Source: a virus. Taken from it: 64,000 bases of DNA. Positions 6,094-64,000 of this stretch are shown here, one piece after another. Each line of letters begins with the position of its first letter. Position 1 is the first letter of the stretch. The stretch lies in UHGV virus genome UHGV-0037395, one strand, 5' to 3'. The notes under the pieces were generated by a model. That model was not told the DNA's origin. It did no database searches and saw only the letters and a list, made by a program, of their open reading frames with translations. A program made the position numbers and the translations under genes.

Positions 6094-8857
6094 CTAGCTC
6101 TGCCATTGCTTCATCATGCATATGTTTCTCCTCATCAGTCATAAACTTATATGGGATTGGCATACACTCGATTTTACAATAAGTTCTGTACCAGTCTACA
6201 ATATTCTCCGTGTTCATATCTTTACCAATACCCATCATACCAAGATACATTCTGGCATATTTTGGGTTAGCACTCTGACCTGTTTTAAGGAAGAAATCTT
6301 TCTTCTTACCTTTCAGAGCTTCTATGAATGGTTTGATAGTGACATTTGAACACTTCTTAATATCTTCCCAGAACATCTCGTGCATTTTATGGAAGAATGC
6401 AGCCCGATCATTAGGTTTATCCTTGATATATTGTTCAACATGCTCAACTGTTACATCTTTAATAGACTCAAGATGGTAATAGCGAACAAGAAGTAGTTTA
6501 GCTTCATACGCATCTGCATGTCGTGGAGCACAATAATCAGGAGTTGAATACAAAATGGCTTTGATTCGCTCTTCTATATACTCTTTTCCTGCACCTTCGA
6601 TAGTTCCCCAGCTTTCACTGAAAATATCAATAGTTGCACCCTGATCAAGCAAGTAATAACGTAAAGTACTAGTATAGTTCCTAGACTCCAGCTCCCTACG
6701 ACGTGCGTATAATTGCTGTGCTAATTCCAGCCAACCTTCATCAATGTTATATTGTTCAGAGCCTGCGGAGAATCCACTCGTAGATTTATCAATAAAATAA
6801 TAAATGTTCTGAGCACCACGGTCGCGCCTGATTGCTTGAAAACGCATGTTTGGCGCTTGGTTACTAGTTCTAGTAATAACGAATACGTTATCAAAATAGT
6901 TGAAGTCAACACCACTTGTTACGGATGGACTACATAATAAGCAATCAATTTGTTGGTCAATTAGCTCATTAGTTGTGTAATCCAGAATACGTCTAATATC
7001 CACATCAGACGTAGAGTTTGAGTGGATTTCCTTAACTAACGCACCCGTATTACGACGTAATGCCATGCCCTTCTCATTCAGCTCATCAGGGCCACAATCA
7101 GATACCAGAATAGATTTCTCACCCATCTCTAGAGAAGTCTGAAGTGCAACCCAAATACTGGATTCATCAGGGAACTCATAAGCATGAGCTTTTGACAACA
7201 TCTTACGGTGATGGTTATAAAATGCAACCGGTTTATCAAACTCAATCAAAGAACCATATGCTTCAATTGTTTCTGCACTAATATCACCATCGGATAATAT
7301 AATGATTTTTGCAGTTGCAAGAATATCCCGAAGAACCTGAATACATTCACGACGTTGTTTAACAACCGGGGCGAATAATAGGTCGTTCATTACTGCATCA
7401 CATTCATCGATAAAGATTGCATCAATTTGACCAATAAAACTCTTGAACTTATGCAAAGAGTGAATAGTTGTGGACATACGATCAATAGCACCACGCTTAA
7501 AATTAAGCATATCTACAGACTTATCGTATTGTCCTGCACTAAATTTCTTAGCATTTGAAGATACCAGTGCTCTAGTATTGGTAATTGCTAAAAAATTACC
7601 TTTAATAACTCCTGAATCTAACCAACGCACAACCGCCGTGGTTTTACCTGTACCTAGACTTGCTTTTACAAAAGTCATATAACCTTCTGGTGGCACAGTA
7701 TTTAATTTCAAGAAGTTATCAGTTTCTAGGGAGTTAGTTTCTAGCTTTTTAAGTGGAATACCTTTTAAAACATCAGGTATATCGCGTTTAGAATTATTAA
7801 CAAACGCTTTCAGAGCCTGTTTACGACCGTTATTAAAATAATCTTGAATATTACGACTATTATCTTTAGTTGCAATATATTCTGATAAGGCTGGACGGAT
7901 TTCTTTTTCTAGCCATGCAAAATCAACACCATCCTCTAATGCTCTATGGTATAGTTTGGGGATAATACGCAAGTACACCCCATCCTCAGCTTCTTCTAGT
8001 TCGCTGATAGTTTCCTCTACTTTATCAGAGGCAGCTTTTTTACCTTTAATTTGATCAAGTAAAGAGTAAAACTCCTCCTTAAACTCACCCCTAGTTGTTT
8101 CATAGTCAACTAGATTATTGGGTAAATTTACTTTAGAACCCTTAACAAATACCAGACGTGAAGCACCCTCCGCTTTAAATGGATCTACTATACCATCAGT
8201 AAATAACGGATCTGCAAAATAGTGGAGCTGTACGGAAGAGTAATAAGCTAAGTCGGCAATATCAAAGCCATACTTTTGTCTACTACTTTCATTGATAGAT
8301 GTAAATAAGAATTTGATTTGACCCTGAGTTACTCTAACATTAGATTCTAGTATTAAGTGCATTCGGATACCTGGTTTTAGCCCAGCCGAAGACGATGCAT
8401 GAGCGATAAACCCTGCATCAAGAGGAAACATATCCTCACTAATACTATTTAACATTCTAATAATATGTCGAGCCATGCCAACAAGATCAAACTTGTTACA
8501 ACCACCTGTATCTACAATACCATCCACGTCCATTGCAATTATATGACTTGGGTTAGATACATTAAAGTTGCCCTTCTTACGTCGCACATTATTTTTAGGT
8601 GCAAGACATCGACCTCGTACCGCAACGATATGAGGGTCAGACGTTAAACGTCTCATAAGAGGAAGCATTTCTACTAGGGTTTGAGGATCAACTTCATCAA
8701 TTACATCAAACTTGAAGGGCATTGAAGCTGGTTTACCTTCAGGATGCTTTGAGGAAAATCTTTTAGCAAAAAGATAGTCTTCTGCTTTAACTTCCCGCCA
8801 AATGCCTGTGGCTAAATCGCGATGAAATCCTGCATGACCTTGTAGGATTGAGAACAC
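6068..8857 (-). CDS. Large Walker A/B ATPase, putative replication origin-binding or helicase-like protein (~929 aa)
   Basis: Walker A SLGTGKTT and Walker B IFIDECDAV. Probable GTG start at 8857 with RBS AGGAG 7 nt upstream (ORF track starts at TTG 8935). Long leader upstream. Confidence 0.45.
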   Translation of the reverse strand: MFSILQGHAGFHRDLATGIWREVKAEDYLFAKRFSSKHPEGKPASMPFKFDVIDEVDPQTLVEMLPLMRRLTSDPHIVAVRGRCLAPKNNVRRKKGNFNVSNPSHIIAMDVDGIVDTGGCNKFDLVGMARHIIRMLNSISEDMFPLDAGFIAHASSSAGLKPGIRMHLILESNVRVTQGQIKFLFTSINESSRQKYGFDIADLAYYSSVQLHYFADPLFTDGIVDPFKAEGASRLVFVKGSKVNLPNNLVDYETTRGEFKEEFYSLLDQIKGKKAASDKVEETISELEEAEDGVYLRIIPKLYHRALEDGVDFAWLEKEIRPALSEYIATKDNSRNIQDYFNNGRKQALKAFVNNSKRDIPDVLKGIPLKKLETNSLETDNFLKLNTVPPEGYMTFVKASLGTGKTTAVVRWLDSGVIKGNFLAITNTRALVSSNAKKFSAGQYDKSVDMLNFKRGAIDRMSTTIHSLHKFKSFIGQIDAIFIDECDAVMNDLLFAPVVKQRRECIQVLRDILATAKIIILSDGDISAETIEAYGSLIEFDKPVAFYNHHRKMLSKAHAYEFPDESSIWVALQTSLEMGEKSILVSDCGPDELNEKGMALRRNTGALVKEIHSNSTSDVDIRRILDYTTNELIDQQIDCLLCSPSVTSGVDFNYFDNVFVITRTSNQAPNMRFQAIRRDRGAQNIYYFIDKSTSGFSAGSEQYNIDEGWLELAQQLYARRRELESRNYTSTLRYYLLDQGATIDIFSESWGTIEGAGKEYIEERIKAILYSTPDYCAPRHADAYEAKLLLVRYYHLESIKDVTVEHVEQYIKDKPNDRAAFFHKMHEMFWEDIKKCSNVTIKPFIEALKGKKKDFFLKTGQSANPKYARMYLGMMGIGKDMNTENIVDWYRTYCKIECMPIPYKFMTDEEKHMHDEAMAELGARNDSEE

Positions 8858-9354
8858 AACAATACTCCTGTATTGGAAATGAAATAAGTTTTCTTTAGGA
8901 CTATTCAGAAAGAATAGAACAACTGTTACTGTCAATTTCTCAACAAATTAATTGCAAATACTGAAGGGGGGTGGCAACTTCCCCTTTCACGCTACACTGC
9001 CGCTTCACTATACCGCACAAATCCTTGAGGATGGCCGCTAAGCCAGATTTGCTCACCTAATGCTTCATGTACTAGCTCATACTAGATGTAGTATACCTTA
9101 CGTCATCACTTCTCAGAGTTTTTCACTCTTCCCGTCTCACTTCACAACCACCTCACACTAGGTTGCTTCGAGGCCTTACCAGGGTTCCTACGGGATGTAG
9201 ATCGCTAAGTATTCTATTAACTATTTGTTTAAAAACTAACACGTAACAGTTAAAACAACCCTTAATGGGGCAGCCTAACTGTTCCGTATCGCGGATTGTA
9301 AACAAGAAAAATTAGCAAAATCAATTTTTACTAATGTCTCTCATTTATGGGAAT

Positions 9355-9384
9355 ATTATACTATAAAATAATACTCCCTTGCAA
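9355..9384 (-). promoter_or_regulatory. T5-type promoter (TTGCAA-18-TATAAT) heading a ~480-nt leader
   Basis: Cassette-like flanks; no ORF between it and the ATPase gene start at 8857. Confidence 0.5.
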
Positions 9385-9392
9385 ATGAAATT

Positions 9393-9899
9393 TTACTGGA
9401 TTGATTCCCTACCGTATAATTGACCTCTAAACATCTTGGCCATAGAACATGCAACCTCATAGTTGTCATATGTTCCTTTAACTATCCGTTTACGGTTAAT
9501 AGTAAATACTACTTGCCAGTTCTTACTACCAGAAGGGTAAACATGCATTCCTTTCTTATATTTGATATTTCTTAGATTACCAGATACTGTCTGCTCTCTA
9601 AGATTTTCAATACGATCATCACCTTTTATAGTGTTCACATGATCTACTAAATCAGGTAAGTATCCATGATGCATTAAAAATATTGCTCTATGCCGAAGCA
9701 TAGTCCTATTCCCTAGAGATATACGATAATATCCGTTACCCGTAGAAACACAACATTCTTTCCCTGCATTTCTTCCCGTAGTTCTAAATAACTTACCATC
9801 TTCATATCGGAAGTTATCTAAAAGTTCTTGCTGTGTGAATGACATCCTCACCTCCAATACATATATTATTACATAATCCATCCAAATTGTCAACGACAA
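9393..9899 (-). CDS. HNH homing endonuclease
   Basis: YYRISLGNRTMLRHRAIFLMHHGYLPDLVDHVN...RIENLREQT matches HNH/NUMOD-type free-standing endonucleases. Confidence 0.65.
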   Translation of the reverse strand: MSLTIWMDYVIIYVLEVRMSFTQQELLDNFRYEDGKLFRTTGRNAGKECCVSTGNGYYRISLGNRTMLRHRAIFLMHHGYLPDLVDHVNTIKGDDRIENLREQTVSGNLRNIKYKKGMHVYPSGSKNWQVVFTINRKRIVKGTYDNYEVACSMAKMFRGQLYGRESIQ

Positions 9900-9987
9900 T
9901 TTATTTTGACTATCAATCGACTGGAAAGATTAGGTAATAATCCGAGCACTAATAGCCCGGATTATAAAGTTCATCTAATAAAAATCA

Positions 9988-10377
9988 TTAGTCATTTAAT
10001 CCCGGAACATAGATCCCAACACGGTTTAATTGTTCTTTAGCTTCTTTGAGAATATCTGGAGTGTACTCCCAAATATCATCTTCCACCTGTAAAAGATGGG
10101 GCGAACAACCATCATCAGGCGCACGACATATGGCCAAGCCACGTGGATGGAATATAGAGAAGTTTAGGGCAACAATTAAACCCATAGCGGACAATTCATT
10201 CCAGTCCATCTCCCATTCCCCGGCGTAGCCGGATAGAAAAACACCAATACAGGGATCATCTGTTTGCTGCTCAGGAAAAGTGAAGGAGGCTTGTCTTACC
10301 CCTAACCAACGTTGTAGCAGCTTTTCCGCACGCTTCACCAAACTAGGGTCAATCTGACGCCAATATACTTGTTCCAT
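9988..10377 (-). CDS. Hypothetical protein, paralog A of tandem pair (129 aa)
   Basis: Shares PCIG..W.E.D.MGL..ALN...F.P...and C-terminal (Y/M)(V/I)PGL with the adjacent ORF. Confidence 0.45.
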   Translation of the reverse strand: MEQVYWRQIDPSLVKRAEKLLQRWLGVRQASFTFPEQQTDDPCIGVFLSGYAGEWEMDWNELSAMGLIVALNFSIFHPRGLAICRAPDDGCSPHLLQVEDDIWEYTPDILKEAKEQLNRVGIYVPGLND

Positions 10378-10386
10378 TCTGCCTCC

Positions 10387-10815
10387 TTAAGCAGTTAAAC
10401 CTGGGATCATATACCCGAAACGTCGAAGTTTCTGAATCCCCTCATTTACTTCTTCCGGTGAGTAAGACCAACCATAACGTTCATTAACCTGAAAACCAGG
10501 AGATTCACTAGTTTTATAGTTAACAACAAGGCGATGCTTAGCAGGCATAAACAGCTTATAATTTAACGCAAAAACTAAGCCCATTTCGTCTAACTCTTTC
10601 CAGCCCACAATCTCTTCAAGACCATCCTCTACCTGCACAATTAAACCAATACAGGGCCCCTCATCAATATCATCTTTAAAAGCAAAGGAGATTTCGTTAT
10701 TCTCACACCATATTTTCAAAGAGTTAATAGCCTCATTATACAGGCTAGCTGGGAGAGTACGCCAAAAGTTAACCAAAATTGGGTTAGCTTCTTTAGAGAA
10801 TACATTATTGAACAT
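10387..10815 (-). CDS. Hypothetical protein, paralog B of tandem pair (142 aa)
   Basis: Paralogous to 9988-10377 (same conserved blocks). Confidence 0.45.
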   Translation of the reverse strand: MFNNVFSKEANPILVNFWRTLPASLYNEAINSLKIWCENNEISFAFKDDIDEGPCIGLIVQVEDGLEEIVGWKELDEMGLVFALNYKLFMPAKHRLVVNYKTSESPGFQVNERYGWSYSPEEVNEGIQKLRRFGYMIPGLTA

Positions 10816-58887: not shown

Positions 58888-59487
58888 GTCGGATTTGCAC
58901 ACTGACATAAGTTTAAAAACTGGTCGGATTTGCACAATCGCCTAAGTTTTTAGGAACACATAATCTCCTGAAAATGGCAGCATTATTTCGGGCCGAAGGC
59001 CCATGATTGCCTGAGTTTTTAGAGCCACAGAAATTTTCACTTGTCAAGCTATTTTGCTCCATTTAGCTAATAAAATTTTACTTTTTCTGCACTTATCTCA
59101 AATTAACCCAAATCTTCTCAACTCTTCCCCAAAATCCCCGCAAATCAGGTGCTCCGCACCAAACATGCACCCCTCCCGCAGTTCCCCCAAATTTCTCTCA
59201 CTCTCTCAACTTCTCCCCAAACTCATACAATCACACACCCTCTAATCGAAGTCACAAAAATCTTGTCGGATTCGCACAAATAAATCCATGTCGGATTTGC
59301 ACATATTCTAGTTAATTCCACAGGATTGATGCGCAGCATCAGATTGCTGGAGTTTTTAGGAAAATTCATTGTCGGATTTGCACACTATAAAAATTTTTCG
59401 GGTCGGATTTGCACATTACCAAAAATTGTCGGATTCGCACATACACGCCCGCACGTAACCCGTGGGGGCAAATGTCGGATTTGCACA
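58888..59487 (+). repeat. Array of eight direct 15-bp iterons TGTCGGATT(T/C)GCACA
   Basis: Copies at 58888, 58923, 59265, 59290, 59371, 59402, 59428, 59474; same orientation, irregular spacing, no ORF. Confidence 0.8.
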
Positions 59488-59516
59488 AAAGCGCAGGGCA
59501 ATTGCCCTGCTAGCCT

Positions 59517-59705
59517 GAATGCGAATGATAATGAGAATCATTCGCATTTAAAAAGCGGAATGAGAATGATAATGATTCGCATTTAAGAATGGAAGTGAGA
59601 ATTATTCAGGAAGTGAAACGATTCTCATTTAAAAAGTGGAATGATTATTAGTTAGATAGTGAAATGCGAATGATAATGATTCGTATTTAAGAATGGAAGT
59701 GAGAA
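59517..59705. repeat. Cluster of dimer-type palindromes (AATGCGAATGAT-N-ATCATTCGCATT family) and a ~45-bp direct repeat
   Basis: Perfect palindrome 59517-59548; related half-sites at 59557-59585 and 59661-59690; repeated GAATGGAAGTGAGAA. Confidence 0.7.
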
Positions 59706-59710
59706 ACACT

Positions 59711-59823
59711 ACTATTTAAGTTATCCACAGACTTATCAACAGCACGATTTGACTTGACAAAATCCTAGCCATTTTGAGGCGTTATCAACAGACTTATCAA
59801 CAGCTTATCCTACTGTATAAATA
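59711..59823 (+). repeat. Left arm of inverted repeat: DnaA-box cluster (TTATCCACA, TTATCAACA x4) plus CAGCTTATCCTACTGTATAAATATACAG
   Basis: 28-bp core is the exact reverse complement of 63888-63915; contains -10-like TATAAAT reading rightwards. Confidence 0.75.
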
Positions 59824-60026
59824 TACAGTATTCCTATGCAGTGAATAATTCTAATATAGCGTTAAAACGTCCTAGATCGCATTCTAACGCGTTTAATTTT
59901 GGTGGGGATACTAAAACAGGGGCAAAATTGGAGGAGGCTTGAAAATTAGTTAGCTCGCTAACGATCACACAAGGCGACACGTAACACCCTAACCATTAGC
60001 AGGCTAACCATCGCGGGCGCGGTCAA

Positions 60027-60047
60027 ATGAGAATCATTCTCATTTGA
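60027..60047. repeat. Perfect 21-bp palindrome AAATGAGAATCATTCTCATTT (operator-like)
   Basis: Same half-site family as 59.5-kb palindromes; sits at distal end of module operon. Confidence 0.6.
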
Positions 60048-60085
60048 GAATTGGGGGCACTTCCTGATAGTTGCGCCCCGTGATT
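60044..60085. terminator. GC hairpin plus T-run at distal end of minus-strand module (possibly bidirectional)
   Basis: GGGGC-ACTTCCTGATAGTTGC-GCCCC followed by GTGATTATTATT on plus strand. Confidence 0.4.
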
Positions 60086-60086
60086 A

Positions 60087-60281
60087 TTATTCTGGTAGTC
60101 GGTGCGTGATTTTTTCCTCTTCCCCGTAGGAATCCACCAAATGCTGATAATAACCATCGTGATCATAAATCACTTTATCATACTCCCCACGCTCGACCGC
60201 TTGTCGGTTTTCCAGCGTATCGGGCACGTAAAAAACATCAACCATTGTACTGATTTTGGTTACAACAATTTTATTGCTCAT
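60087..60281 (-). CDS. Hypothetical protein (64 aa), distal gene of GC-richer minus-strand module
   Basis: ORF followed on the minus strand by a hairpin terminator and a palindromic operator. Confidence 0.4.
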   Translation of the reverse strand: MSNKIVVTKISTMVDVFYVPDTLENRQAVERGEYDKVIYDHDGYYQHLVDSYGEEEKITHRLPE

Positions 60282-60296
60282 AGTAACGCCCCGTTA

Positions 60297-60521
60297 TTAG
60301 TTGACTATCTCAAAAATAGCGTTCTCAAGTGTCGCCCTTAGAATCCTCTCGCGCCCTACTACGGAATACTTGAGATCTGGTATTTTGTAACGCTCAATTG
60401 TTTTGAGTAGTTGATCTTTTTGGGCTTTATATTTTTGCCCTTCCTGCACTATCGTGTCGCCTTCGGCTTTAACGCAAATCAGTGTAACCATATAACCCCC
60501 TAGTAAATATATTTTTGCCAA
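60297..60521 (-). CDS. Hypothetical protein (74 aa)
   Basis: ORF in module operon. Confidence 0.4.
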   Translation of the reverse strand: MAKIYLLGGYMVTLICVKAEGDTIVQEGQKYKAQKDQLLKTIERYKIPDLKYSVVGRERILRATLENAIFEIVN

Positions 60522-60618
60522 TAGTGGCGAACTTTATCGCCACCAGCGGAATCATTCGCAGCCTCAACATTACCCGCGAAAATATATAATCTCATTGTAA
60601 TACATCAAAATTATATAG

Positions 60619-60834
60619 TTACTCGTATTCTAGATCGAAAATATCCTCACCATATAATTTGATTAAATCAATTAAATAAAACGCTGCACCCGTATTGTTA
60701 TTTCTCCTTATAAATCTATGATGAGAATCCTTAAATACTTTGAATATATCCCCTGTTTTACCTATGCCCCATAAATCTTGCTTTAATTTTACCCGTTTAA
60801 CGTCTAGCAACATAGTCCAAGTAATTTCACTCAT
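60619..60834 (-). CDS. Hypothetical protein (71 aa)
   Basis: ATGA overlap with upstream gene. Confidence 0.4.
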   Translation of the reverse strand: MSEITWTMLLDVKRVKLKQDLWGIGKTGDIFKVFKDSHHRFIRRNNNTGAAFYLIDLIKLYGEDIFDLEYE

Positions 60835-61175
60835 TGCGCCACCTTTCGAAACGCTGTTTCAATACTATCAGCAGTGGATTGAATATATGCGCCTTTCATT
60901 ATCAGGCGCTCGGTGCATACCTTGCGGAAAATATTAATAAAATCATCTTCATTTTCTGCAATTAACGCTTCCCCCATAACCTGAACGTCACAAGATGCAA
61001 AGGTCAAAAATTGAAACGCTAGTTCACGGGCAACGACCGCATTGATTTTATAGTGCGCCTTGCCCTCATAAATATTAATAACGCCCTTATAGGCTGGGGA
61101 AAGCTGATTTAAATAGTTTGCTAATAATGCCGGACGGCAATTAGCAACAAAACGATTGCCCTCATAAATAACCAT
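60831..61175 (-). CDS. Hypothetical protein (114 aa)
   Basis: ORF; start overlaps the small TM ORF. Confidence 0.4.
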   Translation of the reverse strand: MVIYEGNRFVANCRPALLANYLNQLSPAYKGVINIYEGKAHYKINAVVARELAFQFLTFASCDVQVMGEALIAENEDDFINIFRKVCTERLIMKGAYIQSTADSIETAFRKVAQ

Positions 61176-61302
61176 TTGACAGCCTCCCGATTAGATAGCC
61201 AGATAAAAGCATAAAAATCCCCAATGATATGGGGTCATATTTAAATAATGTGGCGGTAAAACCGCCAACCATTGCAAGGATAATAACAATAACGCTTTTC
61301 AT
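61162..61302 (-). CDS. Hydrophobic 46-aa peptide (single TM)
   Basis: ATGA start/stop overlap with upstream gene; MKSVIVIILAMVGGFTATLF...; not in ORF track (<60 aa). Confidence 0.35.
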   Translation of the reverse strand: MKSVIVIILAMVGGFTATLFKYDPISLGIFMLLSGYLIGRLSNGYL

Positions 61303-61511
61303 AGGACACCACGAAACGCAGCATAAAAGGTGGCAAAGTGTTTAACCGTTTCAGCTATCACGTTGCCGCGCTTATCGAATTTTTTCTCGGTAACACGAAA
61401 GGCATTTTTGTTACGTGCTACATATTCGATTTTACAATCTTCCCGCTCGAACGTGTTAACGTCCACCAGCTTAAAGCCTTTCGAACGTGCAAGAGAAACG
61501 TTGCGGATCAT
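61299..61511 (-). CDS. Hypothetical basic protein (70 aa)
   Basis: RBS AAAGGAGAA inside the 3' end of the upstream peptide gene. Confidence 0.4.
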   Translation of the reverse strand: MIRNVSLARSKGFKLVDVNTFEREDCKIEYVARNKNAFRVTEKKFDKRGNVIAETVKHFATFYAAFRGVL

Positions 61512-61513
61512 TT

Positions 61514-61663
61514 TTATTCTCCTTTACTAGTCATGCAGCCCAGCAGATAAGAAAATGCGGCGATACCCGCGCCGATAATAACGGCGTGAACACCGAAAGC
61601 TATTGCAAACAACGATAAAATAGCGCCCAAGATACCCGCCAGAATAGCTCGAAAAATAACCAT
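61514..61663 (-). CDS. Hydrophobic 49-aa peptide (two short TM segments)
   Basis: MVIFRAILAGILGAILSLFAIAFGVHAVIIGAGIAAFSYLLGCM...; not in ORF track. Confidence 0.35.
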   Translation of the reverse strand: MVIFRAILAGILGAILSLFAIAFGVHAVIIGAGIAAFSYLLGCMTSKGE

Positions 61664-61711
61664 TTGTAATACTCCCTAGTTAGTGGGGCGAAAGTAACGC
61701 CCCGTTATTAA

Positions 61712-61942
61712 TTACATTAAAACAATTTTTGCAGCTTGTTTTTTAGTACAGTGTTCCGCTTTCAGCGTGTCCAGCAAAAAGCCCGCCGTTTGCTGATCGA
61801 TTTTATCGGCGTTGTATAGTTCTTGGATGGTGTTATAAGTTTTAGCAATGCCGAACTCCTGCACCATTTCATGAATAATGGCGCGGTTAGATACCCAGCC
61901 TTGAGCGGTGAAAAGATGAGTAGCAGAAGAGTAAGCAACCAT
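61712..61942 (-). CDS. Hypothetical protein (76 aa)
   Basis: ORF in module operon. Confidence 0.4.
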   Translation of the reverse strand: MVAYSSATHLFTAQGWVSNRAIIHEMVQEFGIAKTYNTIQELYNADKIDQQTAGFLLDTLKAEHCTKKQAAKIVLM

Positions 61943-62046
61943 TTTAAGCCTCCAAATTTTTGGGAAATTTTCAATCCACCGTTTTGGTGTAAAGGCATTA
62001 TAACAAAAAAGGCCACCATAAAAGGCGACCTTTACAAAACTTTACA

Positions 62047-62541
62047 TTAAACTACTTGTAAGGATTCAACATTGAAACATCGTTTTAATTCATCATGTAA
62101 AACAGCGTATTCCTCCCATCGGGTATTATCAGGAATATAAACAAGCTGTTTTAATCGATTTGCGTATATTACCGCTTTATTATCAATTATTTCGACGCCA
62201 CCATATTTAATAATTAATTTCATGACGGAATTAATAGGATCGCCGCCATTTACATATGTGCCGGATTTACTTAGCTGATAATGATAAAGGCTTGCATATA
62301 CGTTTTCATTTTCATACCATTCGCCAGTTTCTTCGTCTTCATAGCCATCACTACCAAAACGAGAAGCATTATCAACAGCCATTTCATGAGCGAAAGCGTC
62401 TAGATCCGTACCAGCAGGAACAAAATATTCCTCGGTATTCCCTTCCCCGCAATAGCCAGTATGACAATCGACTAAAATGATCATATCATGTTTAGCCGTG
62501 CTCACTTCTCCTAGCGAGAAGCCGTATTTTTCCTCAGCCAT
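62047..62541 (-). CDS. Hypothetical acidic protein (164 aa)
   Basis: ORF with RBS AGGAGG. Confidence 0.45.
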   Translation of the reverse strand: MAEEKYGFSLGEVSTAKHDMIILVDCHTGYCGEGNTEEYFVPAGTDLDAFAHEMAVDNASRFGSDGYEDEETGEWYENENVYASLYHYQLSKSGTYVNGGDPINSVMKLIIKYGGVEIIDNKAVIYANRLKQLVYIPDNTRWEEYAVLHDELKRCFNVESLQVV

Positions 62542-62606
62542 TTATTAGCCTCCTATTAATTAACAAGGGAATAGTAAAGCGGGGAAATAATCCCCGCTAG
62601 ATATTA

Positions 62607-63599
62607 TTACTCGCTTTCGGTGTTAGTGGTAAAAGTAGAAATATCGATACCTTTTACCATTTCATCAATCATCTCAGCGATGTTAAAACTTTGCACCATT
62701 TCCAGCATTGCCGCTTCCATAGCCGCCCCCACTACCGCTTTCGCCTTTTGGTTACTCGGTGCGTACTGGTCAACCGCTACACTCAGCAGGTTAGCAATCA
62801 CTACTCGACCAATAGGCGTATCGATATAACCTTTGATCATGAACGGTGCTTTTTTAGCCGCTACTTTCGTAATTTGAGTCAATGCAATTTTACCCGCTTC
62901 CAGTTTTGCAGCGTTTACAACAGCGGATTTATTAGCGGCAACGATGTTAGTAATCTTGGTCATGGTATTTTTTCCTTTGTTTTCAGTAGTTTGAGTATTA
63001 ACGCTTTGAGTGTTAGAATTTACAGCATGGTTTTCTACGCTGCCAATAATCTGATTCTCATCTTTCCAGAAAGAAAAGCCCGCGCTTTCTATATCCCCAT
63101 CATATACGTAGGGGTATATTTCCGACGGTAGCAAAAAGTTACCGTTATCATCAAAGGCCATTATAGCCGCAAAACGATACCCATCAGAATCCGACCGATT
63201 CCAGCCAACTGATAAATAACGCCAAAATGAATCAAGAAAATTTTCTACATCATAAAGATCCTTATCATAAGGCTCATAATTTTCTATTGTGAAAACTTCT
63301 AAGCCCGCCCCCGCATCGTAGGCCTTTACTGTGTTGCCTTTTACGATTATGAAATCAGTATCCGGCCCCCTACTAGTAAGCAGGTGATTATCCCGATTAT
63401 ATAAGACAATGGTTGCCCCTTGCTTATATAGTTGCAAAAAACTACTCATATCATAGGCGTCGAAATCATCAAAAAAATTTTGGTGAATATCTTCGGCCTT
63501 GTTAACAAAGTGCTTAATGCTGGTTGTTCTGCTACCGTCCAGCAGGTTACGCAGCGCACCTTTTAAGACGGTTGCGTTATCCGGTTTATATAGCCTCAT
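62607..63599 (-). CDS. Hypothetical protein (330 aa), first gene of module operon
   Basis: ATG with RBS GAGGAGG; ~290-nt GC-rich leader from the IR/DnaA-box promoter region. Confidence 0.45.
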   Translation of the reverse strand: MRLYKPDNATVLKGALRNLLDGSRTTSIKHFVNKAEDIHQNFFDDFDAYDMSSFLQLYKQGATIVLYNRDNHLLTSRGPDTDFIIVKGNTVKAYDAGAGLEVFTIENYEPYDKDLYDVENFLDSFWRYLSVGWNRSDSDGYRFAAIMAFDDNGNFLLPSEIYPYVYDGDIESAGFSFWKDENQIIGSVENHAVNSNTQSVNTQTTENKGKNTMTKITNIVAANKSAVVNAAKLEAGKIALTQITKVAAKKAPFMIKGYIDTPIGRVVIANLLSVAVDQYAPSNQKAKAVVGAAMEAAMLEMVQSFNIAEMIDEMVKGIDISTFTTNTESE

Positions 63600-63887
63600 T
63601 TGTCGGCCTCCTCGTTAATCGGTGAGTGAATGATAAAGGTATTTTCTTTCTAGGGGCAAATATTATTTTACTTTTTTATTTTCCTTGCCTAACGCCTAGT
63701 TTTATGCTAACCGCGCAGCGGTGTAATAAAGAGCAAACCACGGCGAAGCCACCAGGGCGCCGCACTGAAGCCACCTGGCCAACGTGTTGGGTCTTTACTT
63801 TAATACTACCCCGCAGCGTTTAGCTCGTTAGAAAGCGATTTAGGCCGCTTAAAATTGATTGCAGTCGTTAACACTGCCTTTCTACCC

Positions 63888-63997
63888 TGTATATTTATAC
63901 AGTAGGATAAGCTGTGGATAAGTCTGTGGATAAGTCCTTATATCGCCGCCTATCGTGTCAAATTATTTTGTGCTGTGATTAATTCTGTGGATAACTT
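63888..63997 (-). repeat. Right arm of inverted repeat: CTGTATATTTATACAGTAGGATAAGCTG followed by tandem consensus DnaA boxes (TTATCCACA x3 on minus strand)
   Basis: Exact inverted copy of the left arm core; promoter-like TATAAAT reading leftwards into the module operon. Confidence 0.75.
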
Positions 63998-64000
63998 AAA

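Follow-up and report, generated by a model that had tools for sequence, protein, structure and literature searches.

Bacteriophages T5 and BF23 are reported in the literature to pause during DNA entry until A1 and A2 have been made. The way in which T5 halts and resumes the injection of its DNA has been debated for over 50 years; the leading cis-acting candidates are the two arms of an inverted repeat that carries DnaA boxes. In T5, a 131-bp IRC-spacer-IRD element in Repeat Region 2 has an inverted partner, IRD'-spacer-IRC', in Repeat Region 3 (Davison, 2020, bioRxiv 10.1101/866236, crediting the repeats to Heusterspreute, 1987, and Wang, 2005). The boxes, eight in number and of DnaA or DnaA-like type, form pairs whose members lie 3 bp apart, and are kept in 25 T5-like phages; the arm-to-arm distance varies, the intervening genes are poorly conserved, and membrane-bound DnaA on the boxes, with both arms participating, has been proposed to stop injection (Davison, 2020). 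Here we describe the corresponding locus in a 64,000-nt stretch of UHGV virus genome UHGV-0037395 (the window, meaning this whole stretch), in which a preliminary description, made from the letters alone, had singled out a ten-gene module bounded by inverted repeats. The structure is already known, repeats with paired DnaA boxes having been published from 1987 onward. A 2015 account by Davison is reportedly also among the descriptions of the T5 inverted repeats with DnaA boxes. What the window contributes is a further allele of a structure on record for dozens of T5-like phages, not a new kind of element, and the outcomes of our analysis are mainly corrective: there is no foreign GC-rich island, the -10-like motifs of the arms are palindrome halves, and the genes encode pre-early proteins that are ordinary for the T5 family. 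Two side observations, which are modest and no discoveries, are that the gene cassette between the arms occurs in both orientations across genera, and that the pre-early genes of a Tequintavirus lie above its early genes in their G+C content at third codon positions (GC3).

The window can be assigned to a Tequintavirus (T5-like) genome in reverse orientation. Known Tequintavirus genomes share 96-97% identity with its early region (20-44 kb), and its 23 tRNA genes, at 29-41 kb, form the usual cluster of T5-like phages. A megablast search with positions 59400-64000 returned 460 phage records, nearly all of them from T5-like phages of Salmonella and Escherichia, with identities of 80-93%. Positions 64000-58678 are colinear, in reverse, with T5 (NC_005859) 6115-10608 at 79-91% identity, the sub-stretch from 59.7 to 64.0 kb being the counterpart of 6115-9526 in the T5 left terminal repeat (LTR). 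In NC_005859 this stretch is annotated as part of the left terminal repeat (first-step-transfer DNA) and carries, besides genes T5.011-T5.017, the injection stop signal (iss, 9140-10149), the major nick (9748/9749), terminators and a promoter (6411-6489). In phage Kenya-K16 the counterpart lies inside the annotated terminal repeat (DTR), and in relatives A2, A1 and dmp are located beyond one of the two arms, here called A2-proximal. We consider it highly probable that the locus represents, in the terminal repeat of a Tequintavirus, the right-hand half of the pre-early (first-step-transfer) DNA, with the arms as likely DnaA arrays. Its position within the roughly 10-kb terminal repeat would follow from homology, the end of the T5 LTR corresponding to about 59022; the window stops at 64000, within the right arm, and has a single copy of this DNA in view. 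Among the candidate explanations offered by the preliminary description, the colinearity with T5 thus bears out a pre-early region of a T5-like genome beside an injection-stop-like locus.

Inverted arms and their DnaA-type boxes

The longest exact inverted match in the region is 29 bp (59800-59828 and 63887-63915). The exact repeat first reported is therefore real and its right arm was placed correctly, whereas its length had been given as 28 bp and its left coordinates were about 4 nt off. The full arms extend over 129 nt (59715-59843 and 63872-64000) with 76% complementarity, and the end of the window clips the right one. With up to two mismatches allowed, the 64-kb window contains four copies of the motif TTATCMACA-NNN-TTATCMACA against an expectation of 0.07, every time within the arms, which confirms the tandem DnaA boxes described there; the four perfect copies of TTATCCACA in the 64 kb also all fall inside the arms. 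In the left arm the box pairs start at 59721/59733 and 59782/59794, and in the right arm, which is read on the minus strand, they start at 63994/63982 and 63933/63921, with head-to-tail boxes, 3-bp separators and a pair-to-pair distance of 61 nt in either arm.

The arms are strongly conserved at their genomic position. The arm sequence was found in 542 phage records, including Demerecviridae of Klebsiella, Serratia and Vibrio, and both arms of ten phages (20 arms) could be aligned without a gap. The best-conserved parts of this alignment are box 1, box 4, TTGACA and the stems of a palindrome. Between phages the iss-side arm is 92-97% identical (93% to T5), and the two arms within one genome are only about 75-80% alike; common to both are boxes 1 and 4, the spacer TTGACA and a palindrome, CTGTATA-NN-TATACAG. 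The centre of this palindrome is either AA or TT, varying from phage to phage and also from one arm to the other in a single phage, TT replacing AA in one arm of T5 and of the loci L010, L007 and L051, so what is conserved in the palindrome is its stems and not a reading direction. As a separate observation, the spacer TTGACA is invariant in all 20 aligned arms and has no properly spaced -10 partner.

Compared with the T5 elements IRC-spacer-IRD and IRD'-spacer-IRC', the arms occupy the same position and show the same box-pair layout, the same register in both arms and the same inner-end palindrome; as in T5, they adjoin the DRE and DRD repeats and the major nick. Only allelic differences were seen. 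The phage described here has its full set of eight boxes, T5 having lost one in IRC; in the left arm of this phage three boxes read TTATCAACA; and its arms are 4.0 kb apart rather than 3.2 kb as in T5, owing to three extra open reading frames (ORFs). The Escherichia coli arrays oriC, datA and DARS likewise consist of 9-mer boxes matching TTWTNCACA that are arranged head-to-tail at a short fixed spacing, a layout that favours cooperative DnaA binding in E. coli; binding to the phage arms is putative. The resemblance to those arrays covers the box cluster, and not an unwinding element, initiation or DnaA-ATP/ADP regulation. The low-affinity arrays of oriC are typically spaced by 2 bp, and the phage arms by 3 bp.

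The iteron/palindrome hub that the preliminary description noticed next to the module exists and maps onto the annotated iss of T5, and we identify it by homology as the T5 injection stop signal, whose repeat region begins with the outer arm. The T5 major nick (single-strand interruption) maps to 59490/59491, within AAAAGCGCAGGG. A perfect hairpin, GCAGGGCAATTGCCCTGC, lies directly beside the mapped nick site, at 59493-59510.

Pre-early DNA is the first to enter the cell. In the mechanism that we propose, the arms would serve as cis-acting arrays for host DnaA, possibly for other proteins too. Following Davison's model, they would help to keep the injected DNA in place, or to organise it, while entry pauses ahead of the A1/A2-dependent second-step transfer. 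Several points weigh against such a role. Phages without IRC/IRD exist, and boxes have been lost from IRC (Davison, 2020); according to a paper on BF23 (2023), these sites have yet to be tested by experiment. Non-consensus boxes (TTATCAACA), of putative affinity for DnaA, make up about half of the set. A T5 mutant with a deletion from hegG to 017 is reported to be viable, with smaller plaques; if contiguous, this deletion would remove the A2-proximal arm, in which case the arm pair is not essential. That the arms bind host DnaA and act in the injection pause is a tentative proposal, plausible but short of probable.

Three further observations concern the arms and their surroundings. The exact 23-nt box pair TTATCCACAGACTTATCCACAGC also occurs in about 33 viral contigs with non-T5 flanks (L004, L025, L028, L032, L034, L046 and about 27 other IMG/VR loci), several of which contain 8-9 consensus DnaA boxes within 1 kb, and tandem DnaA boxes with a 12-bp phase seem to be a recurrent motif of phage genomes. 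A weak inverted-repeat similarity continues for about 100 nt inward of both palindromes (~59829-59945 and ~63770-63886), with shared motifs resembling CTAGAACG...CGCATTCTAACGCG...TTTAATTTT...GGGGATACTAAA; on inspection by eye, comparable motifs can be seen in the inner flanks of Kamaji, IME260 and My1. In Kenya-K16 the end of the annotated DTR coincides exactly with the outer boundary of the iss-side arm (6313-6445), the T5 repeat being about 700 bp longer, and several other phage records begin within a few hundred bases of this arm, which may reflect a way of calling termini rather than biology.

Orientation of the cassette between the arms

In every phage examined, the same pair of arms encloses the homologues of gene 011 and of the 164-aa ORF, and the strand on which these are encoded differs. 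They are encoded on the strand opposite to A1/A2 in T5, Kenya-K16, ende, T5_ev212, UTK0009 and Serratia phage Kamaji, and on the same strand as A1/A2 in Klebsiella phages IME260 and Sealy and Pectobacterium phage My1, as well as in Klebsiella phages Roth39 and Spivey if these records begin at the natural left end. The unit is divergent from A2/A1 in T5, Epseptimavirus and the Serratia phages, and co-directional with it in Sugarlandvirus and My1. In Sealy a promoter-like site is found beside the iss arm and an annotated terminator beside the A2 arm, and hence the whole transcription unit has been flipped. Relative to T5-type phages the unit is inverted in Sugarlandvirus and Myunavirus, and the arms and outer flanks keep their place. 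At least two changes of orientation are implied by a neighbour-joining tree of A1, a single protein analysed without support values; Davison's Dmp-based grouping of Serratia phage Slocum with IME260 also requires at least two, taking Slocum as oriented like Kamaji. No inversion was seen within Tequintavirus and Epseptimavirus, where all 19 sampled loci share one orientation. The only related statement in Davison (2020) is an ambiguous remark on the "opposite strand", the word "inversion" never being used, and no description of a cassette inversion was found in the literature consulted.

Inversion of the cassette between genera would be consistent with recombination between the inverted arms. 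It is possible, although we regard it as doubtful, that the arms are at once part of the injection stop and recombination substrates, the unit having been flipped at least once and probably twice within Demerecviridae, and that they serve as anchors for the exchange of accessory genes.

A stronger version holds that the arms are chiefly recombination substrates or anchors, that exchange between them flips the cassette and swaps accessory genes, and that DnaA binding is secondary. The shared arms around cassettes whose orientation differs between lineages, the reversal of the Sealy promoter-like site and terminator relative to the arms, and the two or more orientation changes implied by the A1 tree and the Dmp grouping all agree with it. 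So does the variability inside the arms, since the arm-to-arm distance ranges from 1.8 to 4.1 kb and gene content changes, while the arms stay 92-97% conserved. However, the 19 of 19 uniform loci in Tequintavirus and Epseptimavirus speak against it, and the A1 tree carries the limits given above. In addition, when the 140 nt inward of each arm in the window were set against those of IME260, Sealy, My1 and Kamaji, the control with the same orientation, Kamaji, behaved like the inverted phages, the flanks being weakly inverted-repeated, and the comparison did not locate the breakpoints. Nor does such a role account for the conservation of four box pairs, of the 61-nt register and of TTGACA. On balance we think it rather unlikely that recombination is the chief function of the arms.

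The arrangement resembles the Mu G segment with Gin, the P1 C segment with Cin and the Salmonella Hin system, in that a block of genes lies between inverted repeats and both orientations occur among relatives. Unlike those segments, the locus encodes no invertase or recombinase among its ten products, its arms are much longer and imperfect, and the two orientations are found only between genera and not within a population. Inversion here would therefore be an evolutionary event rather than a switch; with no invertase and with 19 of 19 close relatives in one orientation, the cassette does not qualify as a site-specific invertible segment.

Promoters, replication control and base composition

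The preliminary description also read a TATAAAT in each arm as the -10 element of an inward-facing promoter, and suggested that DnaA bound to the neighbouring boxes could control transcription that enters the module from either side. The element is indeed present in both arms, 3' of the box pairs and pointing inward, with a weak -35-like TTATCA 16 nt upstream as read from the sequence. DnaA is also known to repress some promoters. However, this TATAAAT is one half of the palindrome, and its reading direction is not conserved because the AA/TT centre flips. A consensus scan misses it and picks an outward-facing site on the other strand of the right arm, and promoter-like sites in the region are no more frequent than expected by chance (22 versus 15.7 ± 4.8, consensus scan). 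The copy in the left arm would read antisense to all ten genes, and in Sugarlandvirus the whole unit, including promoter and terminator, is flipped between arms that have not moved. Upstream of gene 011, some 200 bp inward of the right arm, the operon has a conserved promoter; it is recovered by the consensus scan, is nearly invariant in six T5-like phages, aligns with the annotated T5 promoter at 6411-6489, and belongs to the three pre-early promoters that have been characterised experimentally (Annor, 2026). At the sequence level we found no functional promoter overlapped or flanked by DnaA boxes. The arms are probably not promoters, and gating of promoters within them by DnaA is very unlikely.

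Two features of the right-hand side were noted in passing. The best promoter-like match near the arms is the outward site mentioned above, TTAACA-16-TATATT at 63868-63895 (plus strand, 10 of 12 positions), which points toward the A2 side and uses the other strand of the palindrome; its TTAACA is kept in most relatives, not in T5. Between the right arm and the 011 promoter, a GC-rich hairpin region carries a 22-nt tandem duplication (~63730-63790, ...CCAGGTGGCTTCAGTGCGGCGCCCTGGTGGCTTCGCC...) that is not present in T5 or in three other relatives, and Kenya-K16 is rearranged differently at the same spot.

An auxiliary replication origin or a partition-type control region operated with host DnaA had been listed as a further candidate. 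Clustered and phased boxes do resemble arrays of the oriC and datA type, and the recurrence of the 23-nt pair in unrelated viral contigs, some with 8-9 boxes in 1 kb, also speaks for it. Against this, the mapped origins of T5 lie elsewhere, near the genome centre, with the replication genes on second-step DNA (Davison, 2020), no replication or partition proteins are encoded here according to PHROG and Pfam searches, and the region is deletable except on the iss side according to the literature. We regard this explanation as highly improbable.

Base composition does not set the module apart. The segment between the arms has a GC content of 40.7% compared with 39.1% for the whole window, not the 45-50% estimated beforehand, and of all windows of this size, 14% reach or exceed that value. 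In the proposed check by windowed GC and codon usage, overall GC stays within the spread of the window, and small shifts were found in GC3, which is 0.39 in module genes versus 0.32 in early genes (Mann-Whitney p = 0.0013), and in codon usage, the distance of the module falling in the top 0.6% of random gene sets. In Kenya-K16, GC3 is 0.42 for the A2-A1-dmp operon, 0.40 for the 011-017 operon and 0.29 for the neighbouring early genes (p = 1e-5). Because the rise thus also covers the A2-A1-dmp operon outside the repeats, it is a property of pre-early DNA in this genus and not a sign of an acquired module. It is absent from the pre-early genes of Klebsiella phage Sealy. Possibly the rise arises because pre-early mRNAs would be translated before the 23 tRNA genes of the phage enter the cell.

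A horizontally acquired island or transposon-like element, GC-richer than the backbone and bounded by terminal inverted repeats, would account for a gene block between inverted repeats and for its modest deviation in GC3 and codon usage, but it is effectively refuted by an overall GC well inside the window's own spread, including that of equal-sized windows, by the equal GC3 rise outside the repeats in Kenya-K16, by the lack of transposase, integrase, recombinase or defence-protein matches in Pfam, PHROG and PADLOC searches, and by the fixed genomic position of the arms in hundreds of T5-like genomes.

The gene 011-017 operon and its surroundings

Ten minus-strand ORFs lie between the arms, mostly with short or negative spacing; a Shine-Dalgarno sequence is visible for eight of them and two encode small hydrophobic peptides, so the tightly coupled operon first described stands. 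Seven ORFs are orthologous to T5.011-T5.017 (67-100% identity, in the same order) and the other three, of 164, 46 and 71 aa, occur elsewhere among T5-like phages; the products have therefore largely proved to be ordinary T5 pre-early proteins, one of the outcomes that the preliminary description had named as refuting it. The promoter and the terminator after gene 011 are also the same as in the T5.011-T5.017 operon (NC_005859). Coordinates of these features are collected in Table 1.

Table 1. Features of the locus and of the adjoining injection-stop region, in window coordinates
Feature	Position	Strand	Remarks
Injection-stop-signal repeat region	58888-59712	+	T5 Repeat Region 3
Eight GTCGGATT[TC]GCACA units	58888-59487		iss repeat region
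67-nt DRE-type repeats	59535-59601, 59639-59705		iss repeat region
iss-proximal arm	59713-59845	+	homologous to T5 IRD'-spacer-IRC'; maps to T5 9526-9394
DnaA-type box, iss-proximal arm	59721-59729	+	TTATCCACA
DnaA-type boxes, iss-proximal arm	59733-59741, 59782-59790, 59794-59802	+	TTATCAACA
TTGACA, iss-proximal arm	59754-59759	+	invariant in aligned arms
Palindrome, iss-proximal arm	59813-59828		CTGTATAAATATACAG
Weak hairpin GTTAGCGAGCTAAC then TAATTTTC	59949-59962	-	counterpart position of T5 terminator 9275-9296
T5.017 orthologue	60087-60281	-	64 aa, 89% identity, phrog_6973; last gene of the operon
T5.016 orthologue	60297-60491	-	64 aa from ATG with AGGGGG ribosome-binding site (probable start); 92% identity over 64 aa
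71-aa ORF	60619-60834	-	GC 31%, GC3 0.29; without PHROG family
T5.015 orthologue	60831-61175	-	114 aa, 94% identity, phrog_4379
46-aa hydrophobic ORF	61162-61302	-	phrog_19184; without annotation in T5
T5.014 orthologue	61299-61511	-	70 aa, 100% identical to T5, phrog_4227
T5.013 orthologue	61514-61663	-	49-aa hydrophobic peptide
T5.012 orthologue	61712-61942	-	76 aa, 84% identity, phrog_5145
Terminator-like hairpin after 164-aa ORF	62008-62033	-	
164-aa ORF	62047-62541	-	phrog_6741; not in T5, in many T5-like phages
Terminator-like hairpin after gene 011	62578-62598	-	T5 terminator annotated at the same place
Gene 011 orthologue	62607-63599	-	330 aa, DUF7566 (Pfam E = 5e-111), phrog_4263, 79% identity to T5.011
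Gene 011 operon promoter	63630-63691	-	A-rich upstream element; -35 TTGCCC 63659-63654; 18-nt spacer; -10 TATCAT 63635-63630
A2-proximal arm	63872-64000	-	homologous to T5 IRC-spacer-IRD; about 3-5 nt lost at window end; aligns to T5 6115-6228
Palindrome, A2-proximal arm	63887-63902		
DnaA boxes, A2-proximal arm	63986-63994, 63974-63982 (variant TTAATCACA), 63925-63933, 63913-63921	-	
TTGACA, A2-proximal arm	63956-63961	-	

The gp013 of this phage is 10 residues shorter than that of T5. For the T5.016 orthologue the mechanical ORF uses a TTG start and extends to 60521; the downstream ATG, which has a ribosome-binding site, is probably the true start. The 71-aa ORF is a rare accessory gene, present in 14 T5-like records and always inside this cassette where checked. 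The hairpin at 59949-59962 is possibly the terminator at the end of the operon. DUF7566 was the only match in a Pfam search of the ten products, and a PADLOC search returned no defence-protein matches. As the preliminary description had anticipated, no transposase or integrase, and likewise no recombinase or invertase, was recognised among them by Pfam, PHROG and PADLOC searches. An Rfam search of 58-64 kb (E <= 0.1) found no structured RNA.

In T5, genes 011, 013 and 015 are toxic when expressed singly, and 011 disturbs nucleoid organisation (Mahata, 2021; Annor, 2026). T5 gp013 has two predicted transmembrane segments and causes lysis when expressed alone (Annor, 2026), and T5.015 is a toxic nickase of abasic (AP) sites that depends on Ung (Mahata, 2021; Annor, 2026). 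By analogy, host sigma-70 RNA polymerase would start at the gene-011 promoter and transcribe ten small accessory genes of host takeover; 011 (DUF7566) would disturb the nucleoid, 013 would damage the envelope and 015 would nick AP sites made by Ung. The T5 counterpart of this gene set is dispensable in the laboratory, according to the literature.

One annotation in this operon deserves mention. In RefSeq NC_005859 and in phrog_4227 the label "endonuclease nicking abasic sites generated by Ung" sits on T5.014, whereas the nickase is called T5.015 or gene 015 by Mahata (2021) and by Annor (2026) (114 aa, same numbering). The label on T5.014 looks like an off-by-one annotation that has been propagated to other phage records.

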